A DNA stretch of 55,654 bases from Candidatus Uhrbacteria bacterium. GTDB taxonomy: Bacteria > Patescibacteriota > Patescibacteriia > JACPHY01. The stretch lies in assembly GCA_016188355.1 (NCBI GenBank), contig JACPHY010000009.1, positions 1 through 55,654 on the forward strand, in the 5' to 3' direction. The translations under genes were made by a program, and so were the position numbers. Below, in pieces: positions 38,065 to 54,079 of the stretch (position 1 is the first letter of the stretch; each line of letters begins with the position of its first letter). The notes under the pieces are model-generated. The model made no database searches. It was given only the letters and a program-made list of their open reading frames with translations, and was not told the DNA's origin.

Positions 38065-38139
38065 TGGTGCCCCCGTGAGGAATCGAACCTCAGTCTTGGG
38101 TTCCGCAAACCCACACTCTATCCGTTGAGCTACGGGGGC
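38065..38139 (-). tRNA. tRNA-Arg (anticodon GCG), CCA encoded
   Basis: Reverse strand: GCCCCCG TA GCTC AACGGATA GAGT G TGGGT TTGCGGA ACCCA AGAC TGAGG TTCGATT CCTCA CGGGGGC A CCA. Full cloverleaf with a GTTCGATT T-loop. Confidence 0.85.
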
Positions 38140-38205
38140 AACACACGAACACATACGACGCGCACTTCGAGTACCGTAGCGAAGAACTTCCCGCCCCGCA
38201 AGTAG

Positions 38206-38694
38206 CTACAGCTTCAGGATTCTCGCAAATACGTCCGAGGTCGGCTCCTCCTCGCCTTCGCGTTCCGGCAGATGCGCGCGAAGTACCCGACGCAATTCCT
38301 CGGGCTCCACCGACTCCACGGGGATGCCAATCCGGGGGCGAAGGTTCTTTCGGGGATGTACGTAGAGCACCGAGCGCGTTCCCTCAATTGCGACGACCCA
38401 GAAATCGACCAGCTCCGTAAATGGATACAATCGATCCTCCAGGACGACTCCCGATTCGGTAATCGTGCAGGTCATGCGCCGCGGCTCCTGCGTGTGCCGC
38501 AGATAGAACACGACCGCAAGCATCACCACAATCACCGCGAACATGAAATTTCGCGTGGTAAATGCGTATATGAGGAGCGCGGCGGCGATCACGATGGCAA
38601 TTGCATACCATCGACGATCGCGGTCATACTGCTCATACTCCGCAAACGTCCAAGTCAGGAGGGGCGTTTCGGGTGCTGGGGTTGTTTCCGTCAT
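38206..38694 (-). CDS. membrane hypothetical protein (two TM helices + small C-terminal domain)
   Basis: ATG at 38694 preceded by GGAGA. WYAIAIVIAAALLIYAF and FMFAVIVVMLAVVFYL helices. The track start 38754 extension looks non-coding. Confidence 0.55.
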   Translation of the reverse strand: MTETTPAPETPLLTWTFAEYEQYDRDRRWYAIAIVIAAALLIYAFTTRNFMFAVIVVMLAVVFYLRHTQEPRRMTCTITESGVVLEDRLYPFTELVDFWVVAIEGTRSVLYVHPRKNLRPRIGIPVESVEPEELRRVLRAHLPEREGEEEPTSDVFARILKL

Positions 38695-38817
38695 ATTCTC
38701 CGTGCACGTTGACGAAACAAGCCGATTCCGGTTACGCTTCTTGCAGCGTAGCAAGAAAAATCATCATCCGCAAACGCACCGTCGCGCGAGATCCGCTGCG
38801 TGCCGTGCGGGAAATCT

Positions 38818-38904
38818 GGAGAGGTGGCCGAGTGGCTGAAGGCAGCATCCTGCTAAGATGTTGAACTCGAAAGGGTTCCGAGGGTTCGAATCCCTCCCTC
38901 TCCG
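38818..38904 (+). tRNA. tRNA-Ser (anticodon GCU), no encoded CCA
   Basis: GGAGAGG TG GCC GAGTGGCTGAA GGC A GCATC CTGCTAA GATGT, long variable arm (GAACTC GAAA GGGTTC), GAGGG TTCGAAT CCCTC CCTCTCC G, followed by TTTTT. Confidence 0.9.
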
Positions 38905-38922
38905 TTTTTGCAAACGATACGC

Positions 38923-38958
38923 CACACCGCGCCGCACCACGACGTGCGGCGCGGTGTG
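38923..38958 (+). other. perfect 15-bp GC-rich hairpin between the two tRNA-Ser genes
   Basis: cacaccgcgccgcac (38923-38937) / gtgcggcgcggtgtg (38944-38958), 6-nt loop. It ends 4 nt before the second tRNA. Confidence 0.8.
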
Positions 38959-38962
38959 CGGT

Positions 38963-39046
38963 GGTGGGGTGGCCGAGTGGTTGAAGGCGCCGGTCTTGAA
39001 AACCGGTAACCCAAAAGGTTCGCGGGTTCGAATCCCGCCCCCACCG
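38963..39046 (+). tRNA. tRNA-Ser (anticodon UGA), no encoded CCA
   Basis: GGTGGGG TG GCC GAGTGGTTGAA GGC G CCGGT CTTGAAA ACCGG, long variable arm, GCGGG TTCGAAT CCCGC CCCCACC G, followed by aattttt. Confidence 0.9.
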
Positions 39047-39090
39047 AATTTTTGTACGATCATGTGCGTTAGATAGCCCCGATACCGTGT

Positions 39091-39429
39091 ATGCCAAAAG
39101 TCATTTGGGTACTCGTCTCATGCCAGACCGAACGTGAAGCAAGGCAAATTGGGAAGGCGGTACTGGCGCAGCGCTTGGCGGCATGTGCGAAATCGTTGGA
39201 TCAGGAGGATACCTGGTATTTTTGGCCGGCGCGCGCTGCGCACCTCACCCATCAGGATGGCGGGGCGCTGCTCGTCCTGGAAACCCTTGCGCCAAAATAT
39301 CGCGCCATTGCCGCACTCGTGCGCAAGCTGCACTCGGACAAACTCCCCTCGGTCGGGTATCTGGAAATCAAGGGCACCAGCAAGGAGCTCCTCGCTTGGA
39401 TACGCGAGTCTCTGCGACCAGCCTCGTAA
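39091..39429 (+). CDS. cutA: CutA1-like divalent-cation tolerance protein
   Basis: 112 aa. VSCQTEREARQIGKAVLAQRLAACAKS...DTWYFW...LVLETL...KLHSDKLPSV follows the CutA1 pattern (LAAC, W..., K/E-T, H.Y..P). Confidence 0.6.
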   Translation: MPKVIWVLVSCQTEREARQIGKAVLAQRLAACAKSLDQEDTWYFWPARAAHLTHQDGGALLVLETLAPKYRAIAALVRKLHSDKLPSVGYLEIKGTSKELLAWIRESLRPAS

Positions 39430-39442
39430 TCGACCGCAACAA

Positions 39443-39475
39443 CAACACCCCCGAGCACAACGCTCGGGGGTGTTG
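39443..39475. terminator. bidirectional 14-bp hairpin between cutA and the ATP-grasp gene
   Basis: caacacccccgagc / gctcgggggtgttg with 5-nt loop, between convergent stops (39429 and 39483). Confidence 0.55.
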
Positions 39476-39482
39476 CGACGCA

Positions 39483-40700
39483 TCATCCACGCCGACGCTC
39501 ATGCCCCTGATCACGGAGCAGTATATCCACCAGGGCGCCCGCTACGTCGCGCGGCGTTCCGTGGGTGGGGGCGTGATGCATATCGATCGATGGCAGCGTG
39601 TTGCATTCAATGACGCCACAACGTTGTGCCCGCCAAGATTGCCGAATCTCCGGAATGATGAAGTCAATCCCCACCAAATCTGCGCCCAGCGTTTCAGCAA
39701 TGCGCACGAAGAGTTCCCGAGTTTCAGCATGGACCACGTCCGTGACGTCTTCGATATCGCACCCGTATCCGAGCGTTACCTTTTCGTGCAGGTCCACACG
39801 TTCTCCGGCAGCGGGGACCGAAGACCACATTTTGCCTTGCGTCCGCAATATCTCGATCGTCGTCTCGTCCCCATGAAACTGGTGATGCGTGGAGCGCACA
39901 TCTCCACGCGCACCGCGACGTGCATCGGCGTTACGTTCCACCAGCAGCTCCGCGATGGTCCGCTTCCCATCTCCCGTCACGCTTGGAGGCAGCCGACGGC
40001 AAACGGCCGCGCACCTTCCCGCAACAATTGTTGCCCGATACACCGCCCCAGGGAGCTGCTCCTCGAGCAGCACCTTCCAATCGAGCATCTGCGCGGACCG
40101 AAATGCGGTCACGAGCGCTCCTTCGTCGCACACGCCGACGGTGGTATGCCGACTCAGGGAACCGCTCCGCGGCTTCACGACGAGCGGATACCTAATTGCC
40201 TGCGCTGCACGCCGTGCATCGCGCACGGTTCGGACCACCCGCCAATGCGGCACCGGGATCCCCGCCTGCGCGAGGCAGTGCTTCACGAGCGCCTTGTCGT
40301 CAATAATACTCTCCCGTATCCGCGTATTACCGCGCGGCAATACTTCCCAATACCGATGCGCCGCTGCTTCGCGCGATGCGCGAAAAATGTGCATGCGCTG
40401 GCCAAGACACCGCAGCCGCTCCACCCGCCATCCCCTGATCTGCACCCGTTCCACCACCAGCCGAATGCGACTAGGCAGCGCTGACGCATCGGTGGATTCC
40501 CAGTGGAGCACCCGCAATCGTTCCCCCATCCATAGGAGCGCGCGGCGCACCGCAACAGCCATCGCGCGCGCTCGCGCGCCACCGGACCGACCCACGCGAT
40601 ACCCAAATCGATCCACAATATCCAATACATCGGTCGTGTAGTTCACGAACCAATCCACCCGATGATTGGTCGGAGAAGGGCCGCAGGCGTCGCAAGACAT
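39483..40700 (-). CDS. stand-alone ATP-grasp ligase resembling the N-terminal/ATP-grasp half of cyanophycin synthetase
   Basis: ATG at 40700, 8 nt after the comF stop (track start 40802 overlaps comF). DKALVKHCLAQAGIPVPHW, YPLVVKPRSGSLSRH, AVYRATIVAGR, PPSVTGDGKRTIAELLVERNADARRG, LVGIDFIIPEI, IECNTLPSIDMHHAPTHG. No Mur-ligase-like domain follows. Confidence 0.65.
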   Translation of the reverse strand: MSCDACGPSPTNHRVDWFVNYTTDVLDIVDRFGYRVGRSGGARARAMAVAVRRALLWMGERLRVLHWESTDASALPSRIRLVVERVQIRGWRVERLRCLGQRMHIFRASREAAAHRYWEVLPRGNTRIRESIIDDKALVKHCLAQAGIPVPHWRVVRTVRDARRAAQAIRYPLVVKPRSGSLSRHTTVGVCDEGALVTAFRSAQMLDWKVLLEEQLPGAVYRATIVAGRCAAVCRRLPPSVTGDGKRTIAELLVERNADARRGARGDVRSTHHQFHGDETTIEILRTQGKMWSSVPAAGERVDLHEKVTLGYGCDIEDVTDVVHAETRELFVRIAETLGADLVGIDFIIPEIRQSWRAQRCGVIECNTLPSIDMHHAPTHGTPRDVAGALVDILLRDQGHERRRG

Positions 40701-40708
40701 ATCAGGAG

Positions 40709-41470
40709 CTACCCTCGCGCAATCGCGAATCCGGAAATGGTTCCGGCCCCCGCGCGACGCAGGGTGCGTGCGGCGGAGGACATTGTTGCGCCGGTGGTAC
40801 ACACGTCATCCACGAGGAGCACCGCGCGTCCGCGTACTGCGTCCGGGCGCTGCACCGTGAAAACATCCGTCATATTTTCGAGTCGCGCCGCGCGCGTTAG
40901 CATCGCCTGCGGCGCCGAACGACGCACACGTACAAGCACCTCGTCGTGCACCGTCCCCCACCCCGCGTCCGCCAGCGCGGCCGCAATCGGCGCACTCTGA
41001 TTGAAACCGCGCTCCAACTCCCGAGACCAGTGGAGCGGGATCGGAATGAGTATCAGATCATGGCCGACAGCCGCCCGCAATGCCGCGTTCGCTGGTCGTG
41101 CACAAAATTCCGCCACCAAGATTGCATATGCCTGCGCCACATCGTGCGCAGGCATATACTTCACCATCTGCACCATCTGCTGTACGCTGGCGACCGCGTA
41201 GGGTGCGATCGAAATCACGTGCTGCAAAGGAAAATCTCGCGCGCACGTCGCGCAGGTCCGTCCGGCAGGCGACGGCCGCTCACAGCGACCGCACACAAAG
41301 CTGCCGCTCACGGGAAGCTGTGCCACGCATGACACGCACCACCACGCACCCTCTACTCCACACGAAAGGCACACCCGCGGCGCGAGCACGTCCGCACACC
41401 ACGAGACAATGGACGAACCCACTCGCCCTGCGCCCGCGGCAAGGCGACCGAGCATACCTACGACTCCCAT
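40709..41470 (-). CDS. comF: ComF-family phosphoribosyltransferase-like competence protein
   Basis: N-terminal double zinc knuckle (CLSCG...CVSC, CGRC...CATC). C-terminal PRTase loop VLLVDDVCTTGATM. The start overlaps the upstream ORF by 13 nt (alternative ATG at 41455). Confidence 0.8.
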   Translation of the reverse strand: MGVVGMLGRLAAGAGRVGSSIVSWCADVLAPRVCLSCGVEGAWWCVSCVAQLPVSGSFVCGRCERPSPAGRTCATCARDFPLQHVISIAPYAVASVQQMVQMVKYMPAHDVAQAYAILVAEFCARPANAALRAAVGHDLILIPIPLHWSRELERGFNQSAPIAAALADAGWGTVHDEVLVRVRRSAPQAMLTRAARLENMTDVFTVQRPDAVRGRAVLLVDDVCTTGATMSSAARTLRRAGAGTISGFAIARG

Positions 41471-42057
41471 TGCGCATCATCGACGCGCCAGCCCTCCGGA
41501 GTCTCCATGAGGTGCACCACTAAAATCTGCGTATTCGTCCGTGCAGCTGCAGTAGCGCGCGTCTCCATGCGCTGCGTCGTGACCCGTGCCGTTGCCGTAC
41601 GCGGCTGCGCATCGTCCGCAAGCATCACTGCCGTTGAAAGCGCAATCGTGGAAGTCGCCCGGAATTCCGCGGCCGCTGCTTGCGCCAGTTGCTGCGCCAC
41701 AAACGATTCCATGCGGCGATGGTATCGCTCCGTCATGAGCGAATAGAGATCGCTAATGTTCACGAATTTCCCTTCACTCGAATATGTCCCGAAGCGCTCC
41801 GCAAAGGTCATGGCAATTTGTCGAATCGCCACATCCGCCGGCGGAGGAGCGGGCGGAGCCTCGACCTGTGGCGCATCGGTCGGTGTTATCACATCCCCTG
41901 AACGAGCGAGTCCACCAACCGCGGTTGCAGGATTCTGCGCAGACGATGCGGGAGGCGTCGGCGATGGTGCCGATTTCTTCCCGAAGAACAATAATGCCAG
42001 CGCGATGAGCGCAAGCAGAATAATCGCCATCAACGCCATCTTCATCCGTCGCTGCAT
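41458..42057 (-). CDS. membrane-anchored hypothetical protein
   Basis: MQRRMKMALMAIILLALIALALLFF anchor, Pro-rich linker, about 120-aa globular C-terminus. 27 nt after the VirB4 stop. Confidence 0.55.
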   Translation of the reverse strand: MQRRMKMALMAIILLALIALALLFFGKKSAPSPTPPASSAQNPATAVGGLARSGDVITPTDAPQVEAPPAPPPADVAIRQIAMTFAERFGTYSSEGKFVNISDLYSLMTERYHRRMESFVAQQLAQAAAAEFRATSTIALSTAVMLADDAQPRTATARVTTQRMETRATAAARTNTQILVVHLMETPEGWRVDDAQWES

Positions 42058-42084
42058 ACGAAAATATCAAAAATCGAGCAACGA

Positions 42085-43986
42085 TCACGCCCGTTCCATG
42101 ACCGGCTGCGCTGCTTCCTTTTCGGTGAGCGAATCTTCGAACGCGCGCTTCGATTCCTCGATCGCGAGCAGCTGCCGGGGGTCGGAGGTGATGAGCTGAT
42201 CCTCGCTGTAGCTCGCCACAATTTTGATGGCGACATGTTTCGCTCCGGCGAAGAAAATCCCCTCTCCGGGACCCGATTCGAGCAGCAGATATTTCTCGCC
42301 CTGCGTGAGCATGAACGTTTTCTGGATGGTGTCGATTGCGGCGGGAGACTGCTTCAGGAGCAATTGAATCGCGGAGTTCGTCACGATCGCCCGCCCGTAT
42401 TGCGACGTCAAGAAATCCTGTACGTCCTGCGTAATCGTGGTCACCCCCAAATAGTACTTACGGCATCGCTTCACGAGCGCGAAGATGAACTTCGCGGAGT
42501 CTTCATGCTGCATGAGCCACCATGCTTCATCCACCACCAATTCGCGACGCTTGCGTTCGGACCGAACGACGTTCCAAATGTAGTTGACGATGGAGTAGAT
42601 GGCAATCGGCTTCAATTCATCCTCAAGATCACGCACGGAGAAAATGACGAGCTGGTTACGCATCTGAACGTTCGTCGGCGCGTTGAGGAGACCCGAGAAC
42701 GTTCCTTCCGTAAACTTCTTCAACCGTTCCGCGAGCGGCAATCCCCCGACCATGCCATCGAGAATCTGCTGCAGGTCCTGGAGAATCGGCATGTCGCGCT
42801 CCGTGAGCACGGAGAGATTGCTCGCGGGAGTAATGTCCTTCTTTGCGTAACATTCGAGCAGCGCGCGATCAATGACCGCATCTTCCTGCGTTGTGAACGG
42901 GCCGATCATGATCTTCAGCAACCCCTTCACGGTAATCACGGCAGTACGGATGATATCTTCCGCCGCAACCTCCTCCCCCCCTCCTCCCACGGGTCGCGGA
43001 AGATCAAACGGATTCACCTTTGCATCCGAAGAAAGGGACACGTTAATGTACGTCCCCCCCACCGCGTCGGAAAGGTGCTTATATTCCATCTCTGGATCGA
43101 TCACGATCACGTCCACGCCCATCATGAGCGCACGCAACACCTCCAACTTCACCGCGTAGCTCTTCCCCGCACCGGAAGTTGCGAACACGACCATGTTCGC
43201 GTTCTGCAAACTGAACCGATCGAAGAGGATTAAGCTGTTATTGTGCCGATTGATGCCGTAGAGGACGCCATCATTCGACGTCAACTCGGAGGAAATGAAC
43301 GGGAACGACGATGCACAGGGGGACGAATTCATGTTGAACGACACCATGAGCTCGTCATTATTGAGCGGCAGCGTCGAATTGAACCCCTGCTCTGCCTGGA
43401 AATACACCCGCTTACTATATACGAGCTTCGTCCCGAGGAGCTGCTCAATTTCATCCGATGCCTTATCGAGCTCCTCTTTCGATTTCGCGTATACGGAAAC
43501 GTAGAGCGCGTACTGAAAAAACTTTTCCGTTCCTTGGGAGAGATCATCGCGAAGCTGCTCAATATCCCGAAGCGCGGTTTCCCGAATCGGATCGCGCGGC
43601 GCCCCCTTCTCCTGATCCGACAAAATCTGCGCCTCGAGCGCACCCACTTTTTTGCGCAGCTGCTTCAGGATAATGCCCGTCTTCACGGGGTAAAAATACA
43701 TCGACACGTCGACCATCTTATTGATGTTGATGATCGGCGCAAACCAGCCCACGTTGATATATCGCGGGTAATCGATCACGAACAACGTGCGCACAAACAA
43801 TCCCCCGAGCTGGAGATAATCCGGCGTCACCTGAAATGCAGCAGGGGCAATGAGATCGCGTACGGAGACGATACCACTGCGGTAGATGCGCTCTTCTTCG
43901 AGGACAATGCGCTCCTCTTCCGTGCGCAATGCCGTCTCGGATGGTTTCGCGTTCGCGCGTTCGAGTTGTCGAGGGTCGATCGCCAT
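42085..43986 (-). CDS. virB4: VirB4/TrbE-family type IV secretion ATPase
   Basis: ATG at 43986 (track start is TTG 43992). DYPRYINVGWF block; Walker A VVFATSGAGKSYAVK; Walker B ELVVDEAWWLM; GVTTITQD. Confidence 0.85.
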   Translation of the reverse strand: MAIDPRQLERANAKPSETALRTEEERIVLEEERIYRSGIVSVRDLIAPAAFQVTPDYLQLGGLFVRTLFVIDYPRYINVGWFAPIININKMVDVSMYFYPVKTGIILKQLRKKVGALEAQILSDQEKGAPRDPIRETALRDIEQLRDDLSQGTEKFFQYALYVSVYAKSKEELDKASDEIEQLLGTKLVYSKRVYFQAEQGFNSTLPLNNDELMVSFNMNSSPCASSFPFISSELTSNDGVLYGINRHNNSLILFDRFSLQNANMVVFATSGAGKSYAVKLEVLRALMMGVDVIVIDPEMEYKHLSDAVGGTYINVSLSSDAKVNPFDLPRPVGGGGEEVAAEDIIRTAVITVKGLLKIMIGPFTTQEDAVIDRALLECYAKKDITPASNLSVLTERDMPILQDLQQILDGMVGGLPLAERLKKFTEGTFSGLLNAPTNVQMRNQLVIFSVRDLEDELKPIAIYSIVNYIWNVVRSERKRRELVVDEAWWLMQHEDSAKFIFALVKRCRKYYLGVTTITQDVQDFLTSQYGRAIVTNSAIQLLLKQSPAAIDTIQKTFMLTQGEKYLLLESGPGEGIFFAGAKHVAIKIVASYSEDQLITSDPRQLLAIEESKRAFEDSLTEKEAAQPVMERA

Positions 43987-43999
43987 ACACAAATACCGA

Positions 44000-44662
44000 T
44001 CACGATTCTACCTGCAGCTCCTTGAGCTCCACGAGTTTCTCGTTGGTTGCGGTGATGGGATTGTATAACCGGTAGAACAACTCCATGAGCGCCTGCGTGT
44101 CGAGAATCACACTCTTCAGACCCATGGACTGCAATGCCCCCGCTATCGCATTCACGCGCTGAAAGAGTTGTTCCCGACGATCCGTGAACATTTTCCCCTG
44201 CAACCGCAGACGTTTCGCGGGAGAGAATGCCTCCCCCAATCGATCAAAGAAGCTTTTCCGCCGATCCGTGAAGGGACTGTACATGACCACCACGTAAAAG
44301 GACTTGGTCATGATGTCCCCGAGGCTCACCAGCTCTCCGACGAATTTACGATATTCCGCCATTTGTACCTTCAGCAGCTCATTCGGCTGCGATTTCTCGA
44401 GATCCCGTAATTTGGTGAGATAGGGGTCAATGTCGAGATGACGTGAATGGATGACGATCTGGAGCGGCACGTCGAGCGTATTCAAAAATTGCACGTACTG
44501 CGCAATGACCGCCTCCTGCTCCTCTTCGGATTTCAGGGCGAAGTTGATGCTGGACACTGCGAGCACCGCACGCAGCGTACCATCGTTCATGATCACCGTA
44601 TCTTCGCGGATTTCCGCGATGTCGAGGTACCGCTGTGTGGCAGGATGTGCGGATTTCGCCAT
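44000..44662 (-). CDS. T4SS-associated protein resembling the N-terminal domain of long VirB4/TrbE proteins
   Basis: YLDIAEIREDTVIMNDGTLRAVLAVSSINFALKSEEEQEAVIAQYVQFLNTLDVPLQIVIHSR resembles the VirB4 N-domain pattern (D.v...dG.l..v..v.g..f.l.s..E......f...l......q). 13 nt upstream of virB4 and 5 nt after the prgI-like stop. Confidence 0.5.
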   Translation of the reverse strand: MAKSAHPATQRYLDIAEIREDTVIMNDGTLRAVLAVSSINFALKSEEEQEAVIAQYVQFLNTLDVPLQIVIHSRHLDIDPYLTKLRDLEKSQPNELLKVQMAEYRKFVGELVSLGDIMTKSFYVVVMYSPFTDRRKSFFDRLGEAFSPAKRLRLQGKMFTDRREQLFQRVNAIAGALQSMGLKSVILDTQALMELFYRLYNPITATNEKLVELKELQVES

Positions 44663-44667
44663 ATTCC

Positions 44668-45111
44668 TCAGCGTGCAGTACCGATATCATCCGGACGGAA
44701 GACCCCGCCCGTATTGACCACCAATGCAAGCTCCTGCAACTTCGTGGCACTCGGCGGCGCCTTCGTGGCTGGCGGTGCCGCTGTCTTCACGTTGACCGAT
44801 TTCCCCAATTCCCGAAGCTCGCTATCCGTGAGCGTCTTATCCCAAATCTTGAGTTTCGGTCGCCGCTGCGTCTGAATGAGATTCAAGAGAAAAAAATGAA
44901 ACGGCATGCCATTCACCCGATAAAACGCGAGGATACCGCCAAATGCGAGCAGCAATAACCCCACAAAAGCGAAAATCCAGAACGAGAGCAACTTGAAGAG
45001 CACGAAATCCAACACCCCCGTAGCCAACAGGATGATAAACTGCCGAGTCGTAATCGGCCCGAAGATCTTATCCTCCACGTCGATGAACTGGGGAACCATG
45101 AACTGATGCAT
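44668..45111 (-). CDS. PrgI/VirB3-like small T4SS membrane protein
   Basis: MVPQFIDVEDKIFGPITTRQFIILLATGVL followed by a second TM helix, the characteristic PrgI-family N-terminus; 147 aa. Confidence 0.7.
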   Translation of the reverse strand: MHQFMVPQFIDVEDKIFGPITTRQFIILLATGVLDFVLFKLLSFWIFAFVGLLLLAFGGILAFYRVNGMPFHFFLLNLIQTQRRPKLKIWDKTLTDSELRELGKSVNVKTAAPPATKAPPSATKLQELALVVNTGGVFRPDDIGTAR

Positions 45112-45148
45112 GTGGATATTCTACCACAGTCACTGCGCGCGTTCTCCC

Positions 45149-47005
45149 CTAGACCCGCAGTGCGCGATTCATGTTGCCGATTTCCTGGAGCTCTTCCACG
45201 GTCAATGAGGATGGATCTCCTCCATGGCGCGCGTTCGCTTCTTCGGCGAGTGTATGCTTCGCCGTCAGCGCCGCATTCAAAATATCCGCGTAGAGGAGGA
45301 AGAGCGGGCTCATCCGAAGCGCGCGAATGCCTTCCGCACGTTTCGTGTTGCCGTCTTTTTCAAGGAGCGCGATTTTCTCGATGATTTTTTGCGCCGCCGC
45401 ACTGGGCGTTTTCGCAATCTTACGCAAGTCGCTCACCGTGAGGCGACTCAACTCTTCGATCGGCCCCACCAGTCGCGGCGGGACCGCACGAATCTCCTGC
45501 ACTTTCGGACGGCCGGAAGCCGTGACCGTGGGGACCGCGGCCATTCCGCTCATGGGAGGACGATAGGAGGGAGGCGCAACCACCGGAGCAGGAGGAACAA
45601 TGGGTCGCGGTACCGAAACGATAGGAGGCGCTGCTACGGGCGGAGCAACCGGAGGCGGAGGTGGCGGCTCCGGGACGGGCATGACCGCGGGCACCATCGA
45701 CCCAGGAGGCGCCATCGGAGGTGCGGGCGGTGGCGGAGGAGGCGGAGGCGGAGCAGATGCTACTGTGGGCGGCTGTTGCACTTCCGCGGGAGGGCGACCA
45801 CGCAGGGTCGCCCCTACGTCCTTCCGGGGATTGCCGATGGGCAATGGAGGAGATGGCGGAGTGAAGGGCGCAGGTGCCACCGAAACCACTGGCAACGCCG
45901 CTGGAGGTGACACCATGGCACGCTCTGGTGCGGGTTCTGGCACGGATGGCGAAGGCGCGCTTCTCGTGAGCCGCAATTCCGGGATAGGAGTAGTCGGTGC
46001 GGGTTCAACAACAGCGGCCTCCTGCGCAACTGCAACGACCGGCAATCCCGGCGGCGGCTCATGAATCGGCTTCCCCTTTGACGCATGCACCCCACGCACC
46101 GCGCGCGCCTCCTCTTCCAAAATCTTCATTACCTGATCCACGTACTGCGACGGAATCCCCAATCCTCCCTCCGGCTTCGGACGCACCAGCAGATCACGCG
46201 TCTCCCGATTGCTCCGCACACCACGAATCCCCGCCTCGACCGTCTTCCGGAACCGCTGCTCCGCCTCGGCGCTCTTAAAACGCGCGCCGGTACGCTGGAG
46301 CACCCGATCCACCGCAGCCGTAATCGCCGCACGGCTCGCCGATTCCTCCACCTGCACCGTCGTCACCTCCTCCACCTCTGCACGCGTGAGCAATGTCTCA
46401 TCCCCCGCTGCTTTTAGCGGTTCAATGGTTTCCAGCAGCTGCGGAGTCGCATCATCAGGCACCAATGTGGCTCCGTGATACTTCCGCAAAATCCGAAGCA
46501 CGGCATCCGTATGATCATCGGAAAGCTCGGCCCCTCCAATTTTCACCGATCGATGCAAAAACTCATTCGTTTCCATCTCATCCCGCACCTCTCGCAAATA
46601 CAGTCCCACCGCATGTCGGATGCGTTCCTCCACGCGTCCACTCATCATCTCCACTGGGATCACGTCACCAATTTCTCGCATGACCTCAGCCAATCGCACA
46701 ACCGGAGGCACCGCCGTAGGATCGATCTTCTGTATCACGTTTGCCAACATGCGTCGCAATACCGCATCGGCAATCTCGCGCGCCCGTGACAGTTCAATGC
46801 CTTGCGATACCAACTCCACAGGAAAATCCGACCACCGCATTTCCCCGCACGCAAAACGAACCAACGGCGTCATCAATGATACCCCAAAATCCTCTTCGAT
46901 CTCCTCCATCTGTTCGATTGCCTGAGGACCAGTAATCGCCGCCTGAACTTCTACAGGCAACAATCGAAATTTTTGAAAATCGATAGTGGTGGGTGCCGTC
47001 GTCAT
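45149..47005 (-). CDS. proline-rich hypothetical protein (about 200-aa poly-Pro/Ala-Pro core)
   Basis: 618 aa. Helical N- and C-terminal domains flank PPPPPPPPPAPPMAPPGS..PPPPPVAPPVAAPP. Embedded in the T4SS-like operon with 12-nt and 37-nt gaps. Confidence 0.65.
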   Translation of the reverse strand: MTTAPTTIDFQKFRLLPVEVQAAITGPQAIEQMEEIEEDFGVSLMTPLVRFACGEMRWSDFPVELVSQGIELSRAREIADAVLRRMLANVIQKIDPTAVPPVVRLAEVMREIGDVIPVEMMSGRVEERIRHAVGLYLREVRDEMETNEFLHRSVKIGGAELSDDHTDAVLRILRKYHGATLVPDDATPQLLETIEPLKAAGDETLLTRAEVEEVTTVQVEESASRAAITAAVDRVLQRTGARFKSAEAEQRFRKTVEAGIRGVRSNRETRDLLVRPKPEGGLGIPSQYVDQVMKILEEEARAVRGVHASKGKPIHEPPPGLPVVAVAQEAAVVEPAPTTPIPELRLTRSAPSPSVPEPAPERAMVSPPAALPVVSVAPAPFTPPSPPLPIGNPRKDVGATLRGRPPAEVQQPPTVASAPPPPPPPPPAPPMAPPGSMVPAVMPVPEPPPPPPVAPPVAAPPIVSVPRPIVPPAPVVAPPSYRPPMSGMAAVPTVTASGRPKVQEIRAVPPRLVGPIEELSRLTVSDLRKIAKTPSAAAQKIIEKIALLEKDGNTKRAEGIRALRMSPLFLLYADILNAALTAKHTLAEEANARHGGDPSSLTVEELQEIGNMNRALRV

Positions 47006-47017
47006 ACCACATTCCCA

Positions 47018-49621
47018 TTACGCACTCGCCCCGCCCGTCCCCGCCACTCTTCTCGGAGACAGACGAACCCCCAAGCCCTTAAGCTGTGCGATCGCTTCCG
47101 GAGACAACTTCACTCCCCCTTCCCGTGCCCACCGCGTTGCATTCGCGAGTCCATCCGTGAAGTACTCATGCATCGCGTCCTCTTCAGACATCTGTGGATT
47201 CTTCCATTCCGATCGAATGGCATTCACGATCGATTCACGCTCCTGCGTAGCGATAGATTCCCAAACGGAACGCAACTGGGTCTGATCCACAGATTCCAAT
47301 TGACCATGAATCGATTCATGGATCACCGTATGCTTCGCAGAGCCCGTATCGCGCCCCTTGTTGACCAAATTCAGTGCCGACGATCCTGAGAGCGCATTCT
47401 TGATCTTCTCAATATCCGCATCCGCGTATCCCTGTCCCTGGAGCACGGTGCCAATCTGCTGGGCCACACGATCCTTATCGCCGCCCGTGAGGTGCACCCC
47501 GTTCCCCGAAAGTCCGAGCATGTTGAAGTCGATGGCCAATCGCGCTTCGCGCGAACCCCCGCCCTGCTCGGCCTGTCGCAGTAATTTCTGAAGTCCACTA
47601 ATCGCATTGGGATCATAACCCTCACGCTCACGATGTCGTTCGATTGATTTCGATGTGCGATCGTTCTCGTGATACTGCTCTCGGGAATAATATTTCGATG
47701 CATTCTGCTGATATTCTTTCGATGCAAAGAAATCTAAACCCCGATTTGCATGATCTTGCACCTGACGTTGCGTCTGCTGCTGTCGCTGCGCATCGTACCC
47801 CGCAGAGTATCTTGGACGTGGCCCCGGAGGGGGAGGAGGACCGCCGCCCGGGGGAGGATTTTGCCATGGTGGGATCGTGGGACTTCCAGGCATGGCTCCC
47901 GCAGTTGCCATCTTCGCATCACGACGCGCCTCAGCGCGATCGTTGTCTTTTTGCGCATCTGTTGTAGTGGGCGTCCAATGAACAGAACGTGATCGTAGCT
48001 GCGTTTGATATTCACGTTCCTCTTGCGCACTCAACCACTTCTGGTGGCTCTGGAAATTACCCAAATCACCAACAGCGCGCTGTTGGACAGCAGTACCTTT
48101 TTCGAAGATTGTTCTTCTTTGGCCAGCCGAAAGATCGCTACGAGTCTGTAATTCGTACAGTTCATTCGCACTGAGATCCAAAAGTTGATCATCTTTCAAT
48201 TTTCCGACAGTCGCTTTCCGCAACGCAGCATCCTTAATAGTAGAAGGAGCTCGTCTTCGTGCGGCATCGCGAAGGGCAACCGCATTCGCCCCCACCGCTG
48301 CTTGGTTGGCTAATCGACCGAGCATTTCCAGCTCCTTTGGCTTCCCTTTCAACTGCGCAATACGATTTGCCTGTTCCTCTTCTCGCTTTTTCCTGGCGGC
48401 ACCCACCGCAACCAATCCCCGCATCGCAAGATTGTTCGCAAGCGGAATACGAGAAGCGGCAACGGCGCCCAATCTGTTCTGTGCCCAATCACTCTGCACT
48501 CCTCGAGTAGCGACTGCTCGTGCTGCCGCATACCCTGTCCCGTACACCGCCGCTTTCTTTGCGGCCTTCGTCCCGTATTCCTTCGTCTTATCCACAATAC
48601 CCCCAAGCATCTTCGATCCCATTGCACCGGTTTTCGCGCCGATTTGGAGACCGGCGATCAGCATGGAGATGGCGATAACGAAAGAAATGATGGAGTCCGG
48701 CGTTCCCGCACTCGAACCCAATGCCGCTACACCATCGTTGTATTCCTGATTCGCGACATCAGAACCGCCGACCGTCGCATCTTTCCTGATTTCTGTCCCA
48801 GTCTGTCCAGAACCCGCCGTGACCAACGCTAACCATAAAAAGAATGCGAGCACCGGACCCGTAGTGAGATATTTTCCAAATTCGGACCACCATTCACTCG
48901 CGTATTTTTTCCCTTGCGGGATCGCATTCAAGAGATACGGCAGCGGCGATAGCACGACGAGCGCCCAGAGCATCACGATGCGATACGCGAGAATGACGGT
49001 CATGACCACGCAAGTGGCAAGCGCAATCGCGAGCAGCACGGCCGCGAGCAAATAGGTACCAACCACCTTCAAAATATCCACACCCGCACCTTCGGTATAC
49101 GTGAGGGAGATCATCTGCTGCAGCTGAAATGCCTGTGCAAAATTCCCTGCGGCTGCGGCCGCGAATCCATTCACGAACGTCATCATGGCCACCTGCGACA
49201 GATCGATAAAAATGCCGGCGATGGTCTTGGAGAAATTGATGAAAATCGCACCGAATACGAGCTTCGGCAACAGCGTCTGTACCTGGTACTCCTTTACGCT
49301 CAATATCGTTCCGAATGCGATGACCAGCAGCGCAACAATGAAAAACATGTTCGCAATATCGCGAACGATCACCCACCCATTCGTCACCGCCGTGCTCGTC
49401 ACGAAACTATTGTATTGTGCAACGAGCGTGAGCACGTAAATCACGAGCAAGAGCAGCTTCCCCAAAAACTGCACAATCACGGAAAGGAAAATGCCGAGCC
49501 ATTCCGCAATGGTTTGGGTGACTGTCGATGTCGCAAATCCCGGAATGGGCGATGCCGCGACCACACCCAACACGATCACCGCGAAAACGCCAATAACCGC
49601 CCGCACGGCAGTGGGGCGCAT
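47018..49621 (-). CDS. large polytopic membrane protein, VirB6/TrbL-like N-terminal half with long hydrophilic C-terminal half
   Basis: ATG at 49621 is preceded by GGGAGG (9 nt) and gives MRPTAVRAVIGVFAVIVLGVVAASP (signal-like). An alternative ATG at 49666 has no SD. At least 7 TM helices in the first 400 aa, then a charged/Pro-rich region (PPGGGPPPPPGPRP). Confidence 0.65.
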   Translation of the reverse strand: MRPTAVRAVIGVFAVIVLGVVAASPIPGFATSTVTQTIAEWLGIFLSVIVQFLGKLLLLVIYVLTLVAQYNSFVTSTAVTNGWVIVRDIANMFFIVALLVIAFGTILSVKEYQVQTLLPKLVFGAIFINFSKTIAGIFIDLSQVAMMTFVNGFAAAAAGNFAQAFQLQQMISLTYTEGAGVDILKVVGTYLLAAVLLAIALATCVVMTVILAYRIVMLWALVVLSPLPYLLNAIPQGKKYASEWWSEFGKYLTTGPVLAFFLWLALVTAGSGQTGTEIRKDATVGGSDVANQEYNDGVAALGSSAGTPDSIISFVIAISMLIAGLQIGAKTGAMGSKMLGGIVDKTKEYGTKAAKKAAVYGTGYAAARAVATRGVQSDWAQNRLGAVAASRIPLANNLAMRGLVAVGAARKKREEEQANRIAQLKGKPKELEMLGRLANQAAVGANAVALRDAARRRAPSTIKDAALRKATVGKLKDDQLLDLSANELYELQTRSDLSAGQRRTIFEKGTAVQQRAVGDLGNFQSHQKWLSAQEEREYQTQLRSRSVHWTPTTTDAQKDNDRAEARRDAKMATAGAMPGSPTIPPWQNPPPGGGPPPPPGPRPRYSAGYDAQRQQQTQRQVQDHANRGLDFFASKEYQQNASKYYSREQYHENDRTSKSIERHREREGYDPNAISGLQKLLRQAEQGGGSREARLAIDFNMLGLSGNGVHLTGGDKDRVAQQIGTVLQGQGYADADIEKIKNALSGSSALNLVNKGRDTGSAKHTVIHESIHGQLESVDQTQLRSVWESIATQERESIVNAIRSEWKNPQMSEEDAMHEYFTDGLANATRWAREGGVKLSPEAIAQLKGLGVRLSPRRVAGTGGASA

Positions 49622-49790
49622 CAATCGGATCCTCCCGATCCCGATCTTATGCACGAATGAAATCATGCGGCGCTATTCGGTTCTATTTCAGTATAGCGGA
49701 TTATGACACGGTGCGGGCGGGAAAATCCGTAGAATGGCAGTACTCACACCGCGAAACTGTGGAAATCTCTTCCAACCACAGACATCATCC

Positions 49791-49819
49791 TTGACACCCC
49801 GCCGCCTTTTTCTCATACT
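49791..49819 (+). promoter_or_regulatory. promoter-like TTGACA-N17-CATACT
   Basis: TTGACA 49791-49796, 17-nt spacer, CATACT 49814-49819. About 40 nt upstream of the ATG at 49859. In the divergent spacer with the T4SS-like operon. Confidence 0.45.
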
Positions 49820-49858
49820 CTCCTCACAGCTTCTTTCACAATTCTGGGGGAATACGCC

Positions 49859-50314
49859 ATGCGCAATGGAACGCTCATGCTCTGGTACATAACCTGCACC
49901 GCCGGATGCGCGACCACGCTCGCTGGGAACCACGAACCAATCGCGGTGCTCCACGAACGGCCTCCCGGGTGTCGCCCATCACAGTGGGGCGCGCAGTGTC
50001 TCGAGATCGTGAACACACTGCCCGCTCCGGTATTGATCTGCGTAGATGGCGCCTGTCTCCGCATGGCGGGCGATCCGAACGGGCTCATGCCCAGCGGCGC
50101 AATCGCGTACATCCGCGTGGAGCGACAGGTCGCAGCGCATACGCTCACGTACACGGCGTTCGATGAGGTCCGCACTCGACACATCGCACTCCGGACGCCG
50201 AGCATACTCTGGCGCTGCTCCCTCCCGTTCTCCATGCAACCCTATCGACGTACTTCCTGGGGCGGGCACTCCATTCGGCTAGGACAGCAGCTGGCGGACT
50301 GTCAGATGCGGTGA
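49859..50314 (+). CDS. small putative lipoprotein
   Basis: MRNGTLMLWYITCTAGC lipobox-like TAGC; 8 Cys; GC-rich third positions; GGGGGA about 8 nt upstream. Confidence 0.5.
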   Translation: MRNGTLMLWYITCTAGCATTLAGNHEPIAVLHERPPGCRPSQWGAQCLEIVNTLPAPVLICVDGACLRMAGDPNGLMPSGAIAYIRVERQVAAHTLTYTAFDEVRTRHIALRTPSILWRCSLPFSMQPYRRTSWGGHSIRLGQQLADCQMR

Positions 50315-50351
50315 GTCCCGCAAAGCACCGTAAAGAAGGAGCAGGAACATC

Positions 50352-51005
50352 ATGAAAGGTGCCTTGGCACTGGCGACCATGGCCCTCAGTGCCGGCTGCG
50401 CTACCCATCGCATGTACGACCCCTACTGCGGAGCGTTTACCGGAACGCAAATGGAATACGAACGGTTCATTGCGGATTGCGAGGCGCTCCGCACGACACG
50501 CGCCATGCGCTCGCGCAATGCACAGGATGAGGCGATCGCCGAAGATCTCCGCGGCGCGCTCAATGCAGAAGTCCATCGCAATGGCCTGCAGCACGCCGCA
50601 CCGGAGTACGTGGCCACCACGCTGCTCCAATCGCTTGCACAGCGCGACCTCCTGCGGGCGTCCACGCGACTCGCCGTACTCCCGCCGGATTGCCGCGTCG
50701 CGGATGCGTACTGCGTTGCCGTACAGGCCCGCATGGAACAGCAGATCGTCGCCGCCAATCAATGCACCGTCATTGAACGCGTCCGCCTCCTCGAAATCCT
50801 TCACGAACTGCACTACCAGCAGAATCCCGCGGGATTCGATGAGGAAAGCGCGGTGGAGGTGGGTCGATTCGTGGGCGCCACGCACGTACTCCTCCTCACG
50901 GTGACTGCACCTCCGGAGCAACGCGCCCTCGATCTCAGCGCGCGCGTCGTCGACGTCGAGCATGCCATTATCGTCGCGAGCGCCCACGAAACGTTCCGCA
51001 ACTAG
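50352..51005 (+). CDS. lipoprotein with CsgG/LpoB-like fold signature
   Basis: MKGALALATMALSAGC lipobox; AAGGAG SD. C-terminal CTVIERVRLLEILHELHYQQNPAGFDEESAVEVGRFVGATHVLLLTV matches the ER..L..I..E...Q......d...a...G...GA......G.v pattern of CsgG/LpoB-type lipoproteins. Confidence 0.5.
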   Translation: MKGALALATMALSAGCATHRMYDPYCGAFTGTQMEYERFIADCEALRTTRAMRSRNAQDEAIAEDLRGALNAEVHRNGLQHAAPEYVATTLLQSLAQRDLLRASTRLAVLPPDCRVADAYCVAVQARMEQQIVAANQCTVIERVRLLEILHELHYQQNPAGFDEESAVEVGRFVGATHVLLLTVTAPPEQRALDLSARVVDVEHAIIVASAHETFRN

Positions 51006-51006
51006 C

Positions 51007-51031
51007 AATACCGGCCCATTGGGCCGGTATT
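51007..51031 (+). terminator. hairpin terminator
   Basis: aataccggccc att gggccggtatt, immediately after the stop at 51005. Confidence 0.5.
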
Positions 51032-53117: not shown

Positions 53118-53126
53118 AACGAAAAA

Positions 53127-53148
53127 CCGCCAGCGATAGTGCTGGCGG
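53127..53148. terminator. hairpin between convergent A1 and B1 (conserved in copy 2)
   Basis: ccgccagc gatagt gctggcgg. An identical stem with loop gataat occurs at 54872-54893. Confidence 0.5.
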
Positions 53149-53163
53149 ATCAGCAGTGCCATC

Positions 53164-53682: not shown

Positions 53683-53942
53683 GACTTCCCTCGTGATTGG
53701 TCGTACACGGTCACGCAATCCACACACCAGACGGTTTCCGGACATGCTGCACGTCGTGCGGATGGAATTGGCGCGCCACAGGTGACGCAGTGGTCGGGCA
53801 TGGTCCCATCTGGCCGCCGATGCGCGAGCGCACGTTCCGTGCGGATGATGTAGTGCTCTGCTTGCAATCGAATCTCCGGATCCTCATCCGAATTCCGGTG
53901 GCGCTTCGTTTGCTCGAGGTACTTTTGCGAAAGATCGATCAT
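53652..53942 (-). CDS. TraR/DksA-type C4 zinc-finger protein
   Basis: ATG at 53942 preceded by AAGGAGGAGG. MIDLSQKYLEQTKRHR...CVTCGAPIPSARRAACPETVWCVDC (CxxC-N17-CxxC); 96 aa. The track start 53987 extension is unnecessary. Confidence 0.7.
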   Translation of the reverse strand: MIDLSQKYLEQTKRHRNSDEDPEIRLQAEHYIIRTERALAHRRPDGTMPDHCVTCGAPIPSARRAACPETVWCVDCVTVYDQSRGKSWTQKSKSRR

Positions 53943-53968
53943 GCACCTCCTCCTTGGTGAGCAGGGAG

Positions 53969-53997: not shown

Positions 53998-54079
53998 GCT
54001 TCTATTTTTTCACGCCCAATCCTGGAGTACGCTGAAACCATATCATTGCCGTCGCTCAGTTCGAGTGCTCGCACGCGAT

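Follow-up and report, generated by a model that had tools for sequence, protein, structure and literature searches.

A chromosomal T4SS gene cluster with a linked comF gene in an Uhrbacteria-like member of the class ABY1

The window analyzed here is a 55,654-nt stretch of contig JACPHY010000009.1 (Candidatus Uhrbacteria bacterium, GCA_016188355.1). It contains a cluster of eight co-directional minus-strand genes at 39483-49666 with a spacing of -13 to about +45 nt (Table 1). From the VirB6-like gene to the ATP-grasp gene, the longest ORFs are separated by 12, 37, 5, 7, 27, -13, and 8 nt. The tightly spaced ORFs described in the initial annotation were all found at their coordinates. In the public gene calls for the same contig, listed in the same order, the predicted proteins have 867, 618, 147, 220, 633, 193, 248, and 405 aa, with gaps of 12, 37, 5, 13, 45, 2, and 8 nt (the called virB4 starts at 43986). 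No credible ORF or conserved feature was found in the intergenic region ahead of the cluster. The divergent LpoB-like lipoprotein gene on its far side is also present in two relatives (L081 and L082).

Table 1. Features of the T4SS locus and its surroundings (positions in the window)
Feature	Position	Strand	Remarks
VirB6/TrbL-like	47018-49666	-	882 aa; first gene of predicted operon
Patescibacteria-specific conserved protein	45149-47005	-	618 aa, 14% Pro
PrgI/VirB3-like	44668-45111	-	147 aa; PF12666
TrsD/TraD-like, stand-alone VirB4 N-terminal domain	44000-44662	-	220 aa; NF041427
VirB4 ATPase	42085-43992	-	635 aa; NF045971
VirB8-like bitopic protein	41458-42057	-	199 aa; AF2 and Foldseek
ComF/ComFC family	40709-41470	-	253 aa; GntX, TIGR00201, DZR_2, Pribosyltran matches
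ATP-grasp ligase, CphA G-domain-like	39483-40700 (longest ORF to 40802)	-	405/439 aa; NF010623
VirB2-like pilin and VanY/M15 peptidase fusion	30859-32007	+	weak matches in window copy, stronger in orthologs
radA	32195-33547	+	TIGR00416, 4e-121
recG	34226-36280	-	RecG models, up to 3e-214
Intergenic region, presumed promoter (inferred)	49667-50351	.	685 nt, between VirB6-like and LpoB-like genes
LpoB-like lipoprotein gene, divergent from cluster	50352-51005	+	flanks intergenic region
Three tRNA genes	38065-39047		just downstream of cluster

VirB4 matches the CD1110 family model NF045971 (E 1e-104, 351 bits against a cutoff of 325), PF19044 (E 1.8e-26), and the VirB4 C-terminal domain in PDB entry 4ag5 (4e-47). 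Its Walker A motif GAGKS is located at aa 274-278 (nt 43159-43173) and its Walker B motif VVDEAW at aa 486-491 (nt 42520-42537). The match to the CedB model is weak (E 1.8e-15, 56.6 bits against a cutoff of 700). Numerous Patescibacteria genomes and contigs from metagenomes encode a VirB4 with 68 to 83% identity; they span Uhr-, Magasanik-, Falkow-, and Kerfeldbacteria, all of which belong to the class ABY1 in a published genome table (PMC12102498). The host is an Uhrbacteria-like member of this class of Patescibacteria. The 220-aa protein encoded next to VirB4 matches TrsD/TraD (NF041427, E 4.5e-7), aligns to the N-terminal parts of the VirB4 models NF045975 (3e-9), TIGR00929, and NF045971, and has orthologs carrying the TraC-like domain PF26593. 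It is the equivalent of a stand-alone VirB4 N-terminal domain, and its gene is present in 80/80 related loci.

The PrgI/VirB3-like protein scores above the gathering threshold of PF12666 (E 1e-10, 42.5 bits against a cutoff of 27) and has two TM segments in a hydrophobic stretch at aa 20-67; 76 of the 80 related loci encode it. In a hydropathy scan the 882-aa protein shows a polytopic N-terminal region of 350 aa, with about seven hydrophobic/TM segments within aa 15-345, followed by a hydrophilic tail of about 530 aa. The tail (hydrophilic/coiled-coil and poorly conserved) matched solely low-complexity or coiled-coil chains in the PDB, and a profile search with the 882-aa protein itself gave no direct Pfam or NCBIfam match. 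Among 41 orthologs, six matched TrbL/VirB6 (PF04610, best E 4.6e-5) and one matched TrbL_4. The N-terminal 400 aa are kept in 47 loci, upstream of the other genes in every case. HMM searches thus upheld the initial family assignments of PrgI/VirB3, the VirB4 N-terminal domain (TrsD), VirB4, ComF, and ATP-grasp, and the 882-aa protein is predicted to be VirB6/TrbL-like through its orthologs only.

The 618-aa protein lacks TM segments. Its N-terminal region is helical and is followed by a disordered linker rich in Pro (approximately aa 308-509) and, at the C-terminus, by a conserved helical domain of about 120 aa. Neither the protein nor 59 orthologs gave a Pfam or PDB match, and a single-sequence AF2 model was poor (pLDDT 47.7). 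In 63/80 loci the gene directly precedes that of PrgI, with a median gap of 33 nt. For the C-terminal domain, 1801 representative homologs were found; it is C-terminal in all of them, and 60 of the homologs are without any Pfam domain. The protein is a conserved, Patescibacteria-specific member of a large uncharacterised family.

The initial annotation described the 199-aa product simply as anchored and stated that no VirB8-10 scaffold was encoded. As to VirB8, this has to be corrected. In this protein a disordered linker of Pro/Ala type connects an N-terminal TM helix with an NTF2-like domain at the C-terminus. Its AF2 model (pLDDT 87.8, 41-sequence MSA) matched CagV (6iqt, E 1e-4), DotI (3wz5, TM-score 0.74 on target), TrwG/VirB8 of R388, PrgL (7aed), TraE, and TcpC in a Foldseek search against the PDB, and its orthologs show weak Pfam matches to SnoaL_4, VirB8, and TIM21. 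By predicted structure it is a VirB8-like NTF2-fold protein. The gene is immediately 3' of virB4 in 58 loci. The term "minimal" used for the gene set was also an understatement, because a VirB2-like pilin gene is found 10 kb from the cluster, directly upstream of radA. It encodes a secreted protein in which the VirB2-like domain, a two-TM hairpin, is fused to a VanY/M15 peptidoglycan peptidase domain. The copy in the window gives weak matches (PF18895 0.0027, TrbC 0.0077, VanY/M15 about 0.01); PF18895 is detected in 13/14 orthologs with a best E of 2.7e-12. The C-terminal domain varies among the 14 orthologs (five M15/VanY, one M23, and one C39-like). The fusion gene accompanies the T4SS in 14 loci and in one of them (L067) is directly 3' of the VirB8-like gene. 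It is a probable distal component of the same T4SS.

The ComF-family protein combines a double Cys4 zinc ribbon at its N-terminus with a type-I phosphoribosyltransferase domain that has the PRPP loop LLVDDVCTTGAT. It matches GntX (NF008616, 1.6e-27, positions 22-225 of 227) and TIGR00201 (3e-24, 1-190 of 190), in both cases over the full length and below the curated cutoffs, as well as DZR_2 and Pribosyltran. The CxxC pairs are invariant across 57 orthologs. The comF gene overlaps the VirB8-like gene (13 nt between the longest ORFs) or abuts it. In relatives the two genes are a median of 3 nt apart and overlap at 22/51 junctions; the stop-start overlap or near-abutment is kept in most ABY1 genomes despite divergence of the proteins to about 25-30% identity. 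From this spacing comF is predicted to be usually translationally coupled to the VirB8-like gene. Among metagenomic ComF-like loci, virB4 is upstream in just 3/54. The comF linkage is confined to ABY1, and in other classes the T4SS is near dnaA/dnaN (PMC12102498).

The cluster had been proposed to run on into both comF and the ATP-grasp gene. For comF this holds in relatives: it is co-directional with virB4 and within 1.5 kb in 61/70 informative loci. The ATP-grasp gene fared differently. It encodes a stand-alone ligase similar to the cyanophycin synthetase G domain (NF010623, E 5e-68, residues 204-476 only; PDB CphA1 7lgn, 6.7e-43) and lacks the Mur-ligase M domain. Its position on the same strand with an 8-nt gap after comF could suggest a functional part of the machine, e.g., one adding amino acids to a T4SS component or its cargo, and an ortholog occupies the same position in another Uhrbacteria genome (L083). 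That copy, however, is just 34% identical and about 70 residues shorter, and no such gene follows comF in 79/80 GTDB loci or in L081 and L082, two close relatives with 83% VirB4 identity; in one of the 80 GTDB loci it is found 6 kb away. A role in the machine is very unlikely. Since only one further relative has the gene after comF, it is a lineage-specific neighbour outside the conserved system.

The order VirB6-X-PrgI-TrsD-VirB4-VirB8-ComF is conserved across the related genomes. Because it recurs in 80/80 of them, the arrangement is not due to chance, and vertical conservation of the cluster across the whole class is supported. The initial annotation pointed to the proximity of radA and recG, and both indeed travel with the cluster in ABY1 relatives, as also reported previously (PMC12102498): within 10 kb of virB4, recG is found in 19/83 and radA in 16/83 related loci. 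The recG, radA, pilin, and PD40 genes remain by the T4SS also where the block is inverted and the junction lacks comF.

The best-matching VirB4, PrgI, and TrsD models derive from Firmicutes and Mollicutes conjugative elements, and the three tRNA genes just downstream are of a kind typically targeted by ICEs. The locus could therefore be read as an ordinary or decayed ICE whose relaxase, coupling protein, and integrase are outside the window or lost. No relaxase, VirD4/T4CP, VirB11, or integrase was matched among the ORFs scanned in the 55-kb window (all but a few short ones of about 80-165 aa outside the cluster), and neither att-like repeats nor direct repeats longer than 19 nt were found around the cluster. 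In GC3 the cluster genes (0.58-0.72) match the housekeeping genes (0.61-0.71). The cluster is surrounded by housekeeping genes with unrelated functions, and its synteny with these flanks is kept in 80 genomes of a single class. In the published phylogeny the system forms a monophyletic clade with vertical inheritance and rare inter-class transfer (PMC12102498). We therefore rejected the ICE, ordinary or decayed, as extremely improbable; this reading is largely refuted and the initial view that the cluster is not a conjugative element stands. A VirD4-like coupling protein could be encoded beyond the window; such genes are far from virB4 in many genomes (PMC12102498).

The locus is very probably the ABY1 version of a chromosomal, non-conjugative T4SS cluster carried by nearly all of the ultra-small CPR bacteria, and in this version comF is joined with the T4SS genes in one predicted operon. 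This system was described by Quinonero-Coronel et al. (2025, PMC12102498); it lacks a relaxase and is linked to comF, recG, and radA in ABY1. Import of DNA or other macromolecules was proposed there for the Patescibacteria T4SS, and the DNA-uptake reading is a hypothesis already in print (PMC12102498).

In the proposed mechanism, VirB3, the split VirB4 (TrsD plus ATPase), VirB6, and VirB8 would form a VirB4-powered channel in a single membrane, and the pilin-hydrolase would reach or open the host-cell envelope. Because relaxase and coupling protein are absent, the machine would not export its own DNA; host-derived macromolecules would be moved inward. In ABY1 the cargo would probably include nucleic acid, passed as single strands to ComF(C) and from there to RadA/RecG for recombination or salvage. 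Precedents are the ComB T4SS of Helicobacter pylori, which works together with ComEC and ComFC, and the DNA-importing Ced system of archaea. The statement as a whole, ABY1 T4SS identity plus the proposed mechanism, has an even chance of being correct; the nucleic-acid step, taken by itself, is possible and put forward tentatively. A 2026 preprint describes a parasite acquiring host RNA, with possible T4SS pili at the host interface.

The same T4SS may instead be an export or contact machine that delivers protein effectors or anchors to and opens the host envelope, with comF, recG, and radA as bystanders kept by genome streamlining and co-expression convenience and sharing no pathway with it. 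In Saccharibacteria the T4SS is essential for epibiotic growth, comEC, comF, and dprA are dispensable, and transformation requires ComEC; an interpretation by protein export or another role was preferred in that study (PMC10633639). ComF is therefore not required for the essential T4SS function in that group. The class-specific comF linkage, the unrelated housekeeping genes around the cluster, and the resemblance of the variable hydrolase domains (M15, M23, C39-like) to envelope-attacking modules point the same way, and adjacency conserved in streamlined genomes can be historical. On the other side, the VirB8-like/comF junction is kept through deep protein divergence, two recombination genes and the pilin gene stay nearby through rearrangements, and neither effector candidates nor a coupling protein were identified in the window. 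We regard export or contact as a serious possibility short of probable; the weighing of nucleic-acid import against effector export as the function is inferential.

Among known systems, the Gram-positive MPF-FATA type (pGO1 TrsC-TrsD-TrsE, pIP501, pCF10 PrgH-PrgI-PrgJ-PrgL, CTn2 CD1110) is the source of the best HMM matches (CD1110 VirB4, TrsD, PrgI). It shares the VirB3 - VirB4-N - VirB4 order, a VirB6-like membrane protein, and a VirB8-like NTF2 protein (PrgL 7aed among the Foldseek matches). In contrast, neither a relaxase or VirD4-type coupling protein nor an oriT or mobile element context was found at the present locus, which is on the core chromosome and is accompanied by a VirB2-like pilin, absent from the Gram-positive systems. 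For a T4SS paired with ComF, the nearest functional parallel, as an analogy only, may be H. pylori ComB with ComFC: a DNA-import T4SS without relaxase in which ComFC handles the incoming single strand. ComB differs in being a diderm system (VirB2-4 and VirB6-10) with comFC outside its operon; the present host has no outer membrane. The archaeal Ced/Ted systems (CedA, CedA1/A2, CedB) import DNA between cells without a relaxase, using a VirB4/HerA-like ATPase, a VirB6-like polytopic protein, and VirB2-like pilins. The VirB4 described here is far closer to bacterial conjugative VirB4 than to CedB, and no CedA-type proteins were identified.

The sole experimentally probed relative is the monoderm-type T4SS of Ca. 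Southlakia epibionticum (SEML1_0006-0019; Wang et al., 2023, PMC10633639). As at the present locus, there are pilin genes, and neither a relaxase nor a coupling protein is recognisable in the cluster. It differs in its class (Saccharimonadia), in that its cluster itself contains an array of several pilin genes, and hydrolases as well, and in comF, which is non-essential and not reported in the cluster. From the Patescibacteria T4SS of ABY1 (PMC12102498) there is no essential difference: VirB4, TrsD, PrgI/VirB3, VirB6, and a VirB2-like pilin are common to both, both are chromosomal and without relaxase, comF, recG, and radA are nearby, and the Uhrbacteria host lineage belongs to ABY1. VirB8-like proteins are rare in that system and occur mostly in ABY1; the present locus has one. 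To that description our analysis adds the predicted coupling of comF to the VirB8-like gene, the VirB8 fold by structure prediction, the family of the 618-aa protein, the variable cell-wall hydrolase domains on the pilin gene, and the ATP-grasp gene as a local addition.

The cluster is a T4SS of the Patescibacteria clade (MPF-FATA-derived) in an ABY1-type neighborhood with comF, recG and radA; coordinates are collected in the table below. The longest ORFs and the public gene calls agree on eight tightly spaced, co-directional minus-strand genes, as in the initial annotation, which was made from the sequence alone. The gaps are 12, 37, 5, 7, 27, -13 and 8 nt with the longest ORFs and 12, 37, 5, 13, 45, 2 and 8 nt with the public calls (proteins of 867, 618, 147, 220, 633, 193, 248 and 405 aa). 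The contig is metagenomic (55.6 kb, GC about 60%) and its proteins are also found on the Logan assemblies of SRR12113422 and SRR12113419. The rest of it carries housekeeping genes: thyX, tmk, gatB, miaA, thrS, dnaE, pheST, rseP, a phosphomannomutase gene, lemA, htpX, clpB, radA and recG.

Coordinates of the features discussed (positions in the window unless a T4SS locus of a related genome is named)
Feature	Position	Strand	Remark
VirB6-like gene	47018-49666	-	operon
618-aa protein gene	45149-47005	-	operon
C-terminal 124 aa of 618-aa protein	45149-45523	-	helical domain
PrgI/VirB3 gene	44668-45111	-	operon
TrsD gene	44000-44662	-	operon
virB4	42085-43992	-	operon
VirB8-like gene	41458-42057	-	operon
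comF	40709-41470	-	operon
ATP-grasp gene	39483-40700	-	last gene of the cluster
CutA1 gene	39091-39429	+	downstream of operon, convergent
tRNA-Arg(gcg), tRNA-Ser(gct), tRNA-Ser(tga)	38065-39047		just downstream of operon
Pilin-hydrolase gene	30859-32007	+	directly upstream of radA, 10 kb from virB4
Pilin-hydrolase orthologs (among others)	L002:17558-19129	-	related genome
	L067:12513-13754	+	related genome
	L081:19436-20407	-	related genome
LpoB-like lipoprotein gene	50352-51005	+	divergent from operon
Duplicated module, plus-strand gene	52323-53117 / 53954-54442	+	paralogs
Duplicated module, minus-strand gene	53164-53745 / 54901-55395	-	paralogs
Extra soluble ORF, examples	L004:6545-7540; L023:6321-7445; L002:4972-6183		related genomes
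Rejected ORFs	39118-39486; 38732-39097; 49688-49954; 50145-51008	-	not genes

VirB4 (635 aa) contains both GAGKS and VVDEAW and matches NF045971 above the cutoff (1e-104) and PDB 4ag5 (4e-47). It is 68 to 83% identical to homologs in Candidatus Uhrbacteria, Magasanikbacteria, Falkowbacteria, Kerfeldbacteria and other Patescibacteria; the four named groups are listed under class ABY1 in a published genome table (PMC12102498). A match of VirB4 to TIGR03743 (TraD, E 0.0097) reflects P-loop similarity only. The PrgI/VirB3 protein (147 aa) exceeds the threshold of PF12666 (E 1e-10), and the profile searches thus bear out the PrgI and VirB4 assignments made before. The PrgI/VirB3-like and TrsD-like genes lie directly 5' of virB4. 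The 220-aa product of the latter matches NF041427 (TrsD, 4.5e-7), aligns with several VirB4 models over their N-terminal portions, and has orthologs that contain PF26593; judged by these matches it is a TrsD/TraD-type protein, a VirB4 N-terminal domain standing alone. The 882-aa protein has a topology that fits VirB6 (about seven TM segments, with the last 530 aa or so forming a hydrophilic tail), and PF04610 (TrbL/VirB6) was detected in 6 of its 41 orthologs (best E 4.6e-5) and TrbL_4 in one; the window protein itself has no direct family match. A VirB6 label transferred through the orthologs is plausible. PDB-sequence profile searches with the VirB6-like, 618-aa and VirB8-like families returned low-complexity or TM noise only. 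Total GC is about 53-55% over virB4, trsD and prgI (42085-45111) versus about 60% elsewhere, with GC3 unchanged (0.69-0.72). Codon positions 1 and 2 account for the dip, which reflects amino-acid constraint in very conserved proteins, not foreign origin.

The initial annotation described the gene after virB4 as encoding an anchored protein and saw no VirB8-10 scaffold. The latter was partly wrong, since a VirB8-like protein is indicated by AF2 modeling and Foldseek. The AF2 model (41-sequence alignment, pLDDT 87.8) shows a TM helix joined by a disordered linker to an NTF2-like domain with three helices and four strands. In the PDB it matches CagV (6iqt, E 1e-4) and DotI (3wz5, the highest target TM-score, 0.74), and also TrwG/VirB8 of R388, PrgL of pCF10, TraE of pKM101 and TcpC; generic NTF2 folds, ARC6 for one, reach similar scores, and VirB8 support at the sequence level is weak. 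With this modeled fold, and since the gene comes immediately after virB4, a VirB8 equivalent is the best reading of it. The few VirB8-like proteins reported in Patescibacteria are nearly all from ABY1 (PMC12102498).

The Pro-rich 618-aa protein has no TM segments and no detectable family, even via 59 orthologs, and its single-sequence AF2 model (pLDDT 47.7) was unusable. Its C-terminal 124 aa form a helical domain without a Pfam model. At E<=1e-3 the domain recurs in 1801 cluster representatives, proteins of 110 to 810 aa that all carry it at the C-terminal end. It defines a very large uncharacterised family, which in ABY1 is encoded immediately 5' of PrgI. Most ABY1 relatives carry an extra soluble ORF of 300 to 430 aa, belonging to one of two sequence families (14 and 12 members), between the VirB6-like and 618-aa-family genes. 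The window lacks it, the gap there being 12 nt. Fusion of the extra gene into the VirB6-like or 618-aa window protein was considered and gave only one marginal match; the gene is therefore simply absent from the window.

The flanks were also inspected. A 685-nt gap lies 5' of the operon, followed by the lipoprotein gene (lipobox LSAGC, weak LpoB-like match). In L081 and L082, the nearest relatives, this gene is conserved at the same place ahead of the VirB6-like gene, and its product could be envelope-associated with the T4SS, or unrelated. The Rfam scan returned the three tRNAs and nothing else. The long minus-strand ORFs around 38065-39429 are artefacts of high GC or translated tRNA genes. 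The four ORFs rejected in the table were discarded as genes: they have an Arg-rich off-frame composition, overlap tRNA-Ser genes or the opposite-strand CutA1 gene, and lack homologs in relatives. A promoter/terminator consensus scan of 38700-50500 was uninformative, the counts being near those expected from shuffled sequence. At 52323-55503 there is a tandemly duplicated two-gene module (period about 1.76 kb, nucleotide identity 70-78%) without family matches; the second copy of its plus-strand gene is apparently truncated or frameshifted.

An ICE or genomic island is effectively excluded. The window ORFs scanned with Pfam/NCBIfam include neither a relaxase nor a coupling ATPase, and no VirB11 or integrase. 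A VirD4/TcpA-type coupling protein was likewise not found within the window, though a distant copy may exist elsewhere in the genome. The cluster is not flanked by att-like repeats; the direct repeats seen are 14 to 19 nt long and at chance level. The cluster genes have the same GC3 (0.58-0.72) as housekeeping genes. In 80 loci from species-representative genomes the co-directional order VirB6-like, often the extra soluble gene, 618-aa family, PrgI, TrsD, VirB4, VirB8-like, ComF is conserved. The housekeeping flanks, the matching GC3 and this class-wide synteny uphold the earlier statement that this is not a conjugative element: the cluster belongs to the chromosome and is inherited vertically, and the window yielded no relaxase.

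ComF (253 aa) has a double Cys4 zinc ribbon and a PRT domain (DZR_2 and Pribosyltran matches), with four CxxC motifs at aa 34-76 and the PRPP loop LLVDDVCTTGAT at aa 218. The first two CxxC pairs are invariant across 57 orthologs. Full-length matches to GntX (1.6e-27, 96.5 bits) and TIGR00201 (3e-24, 85.9 bits) are below the curated cutoffs of 304 and 233.6, and in a profile search against the PDB, H. pylori ComF (7p0h) was matched solely over the generic PRPP loop. The gene lies directly downstream of the T4SS genes, with recG 5.8 kb and radA 8.5 kb from virB4, in line with the earlier remark that both are within 10 kb. In 70 loci the sequence continues for 1.5 kb or more past virB4, and in 61 of these comF lies within that distance on the same strand. 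The median gap from the VirB8-like gene is 3 nt and the two genes overlap at 22 of 51 junctions; this spacing is kept although both proteins have diverged to about 25-30% identity. If ComF-like genes were generally linked to virB4, the same would be seen elsewhere, yet of the 54 metagenomic ComF-like loci that extend far enough upstream, only 3 have virB4 there, so the linkage belongs to this lineage and not to ComF in general. Within 10 kb of the T4SS in relatives we found recG (19 loci), radA (16), the pilin gene (14) and a PD40 protein (12), and these neighbors are retained even where the block has an inverted orientation and the junction lacks comF.

The initial annotation's pairing of comF with an ATP-grasp gene after virB4 held for comF and failed for its partner. 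Apart from the window, a single Uhrbacteria genome has an ATP-grasp gene after comF (L083, 34% identity, shortened). L081 and L082, whose VirB4 is 83% identical, have none in this position, and neither do 79 of 80 GTDB loci. The protein (405 aa; PDB 7lgn, 6.7e-43) covers only residues 204-476 of cyanophycin synthetase models. CphA1 combines N, ATP-grasp G and Mur-ligase-like M domains in about 870-930 aa, whereas this protein has a G equivalent only; lacking the M domain, it is a stand-alone ATP-grasp and not a CphA. The gene should be dropped from the T4SS.

The pilin-hydrolase gene encodes a protein with a signal peptide, a two-TM hairpin with weak matches to T4SS_pilin (PF18895) and TrbC/VirB2, and a VanY/M15-like C-terminal domain. 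PF18895 was detected in 13 of 14 orthologs (best E 2.7e-12), and the C-terminal peptidase varies among them (VanY/M15 in five, M23 in one, C39-like in one). The gene co-travels with the T4SS in relatives and in L067 is directly 3' of the VirB8-like gene. It probably supplies the VirB2-like pilin (PF18895/PF04956) that is often near virB4 in such genomes.

A survey of 3,035 Patescibacteria genomes placed their VirB4 proteins in a monophyletic, chromosomally encoded clade nested in MPF-FATA, with TrsD, PrgI/VirB3, VirB6 and VirB2-like pilins, almost no relaxases, and comF, recG and radA common in ABY1 loci; its authors propose that DNA or other host macromolecules are imported (Quinonero-Coronel et al. 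2025, PMC12102498). A 2025 review treats the Patescibacteria systems as a new type of T4SS (PMC12857230). The initial observation and its interpretation thus match published in-silico work, and both the arrangement and the hypothesis are already in print. The present analysis adds the apparent coupling of comF translation to that of the VirB8-like gene, model-based support for VirB8, a putative pilin-hydrolase fusion with swappable hydrolase domains, the family size of the 618-aa protein and the exclusion of the ATP-grasp gene.

Patescibacteria account for much of bacterial diversity, yet they cannot synthesize nucleotides, amino acids or lipids; the T4SS may bear on how they get these from hosts. 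To our knowledge it is the sole T4SS known as essential to its carrier. Beyond the parts list, gene order and conservation that we observe, VirB3, TrsD with VirB4, VirB6 and VirB8 would form an ATP-driven channel through a single membrane, and the pilin-hydrolase would engage the envelope of the host. Host macromolecules, nucleic acid included, would then move inward, and ComF, RadA and RecG would process the nucleic acid. Export of the cell's own DNA by the machine is unlikely because neither a relaxase nor a coupling protein was found in the window. Inward transfer has the operon evidence on its side, as well as the precedents of ComB and Ced; we hold it only tentatively, somewhat short of an even chance, for two reasons. 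In Saccharibacteria, Tn-seq showed that epibiotic growth depends on the T4SS, whereas the cells can do without comEC, comF and dprA, and natural transformation requires ComEC (Wang et al. 2023, PMC10633639); that essential role thus needs neither ComF nor ComEC. The comF linkage is, moreover, class-specific. Nearly as likely is the main rival, in which the machine serves export or contact and comF is a bystander. On the side of inward transfer, a 2026 preprint describes a parasitic ultra-small bacterium feeding on host RNA, where the interface with the host shows possible T4SS pili.

The coupling of comF to a T4SS subunit in ABY1, as read from gene spacing, is the clearest genomic hint that the cargo may include nucleic acid. 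We know of no cultured ABY1 representative, and the hint is already published, so the locus confirms and sharpens a known lead and opens no new one; it keeps some value as a more precise idea to test, namely docking of ComF at a T4SS. A bolder and rather improbable version is that the ABY1 T4SS has been rewired for contact-dependent nucleic-acid import and recombination. ComFC, co-translated with the VirB8-like protein, would dock at the VirB4/VirB6 channel in place of the coupling protein, RadA and RecG would process the strand, and the pilin-tethered hydrolase would open the host envelope. The Ced system combines a CedB-type ATPase with CedA, CedA1 and CedA2, whereas VirB4 here scores 56.6 bits against the CedB model (cutoff 700) and CedA-type proteins gave no matches. 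If it were true, the rewired ABY1 T4SS would be the bacterial monoderm counterpart of archaeal Ced and H. pylori ComB.
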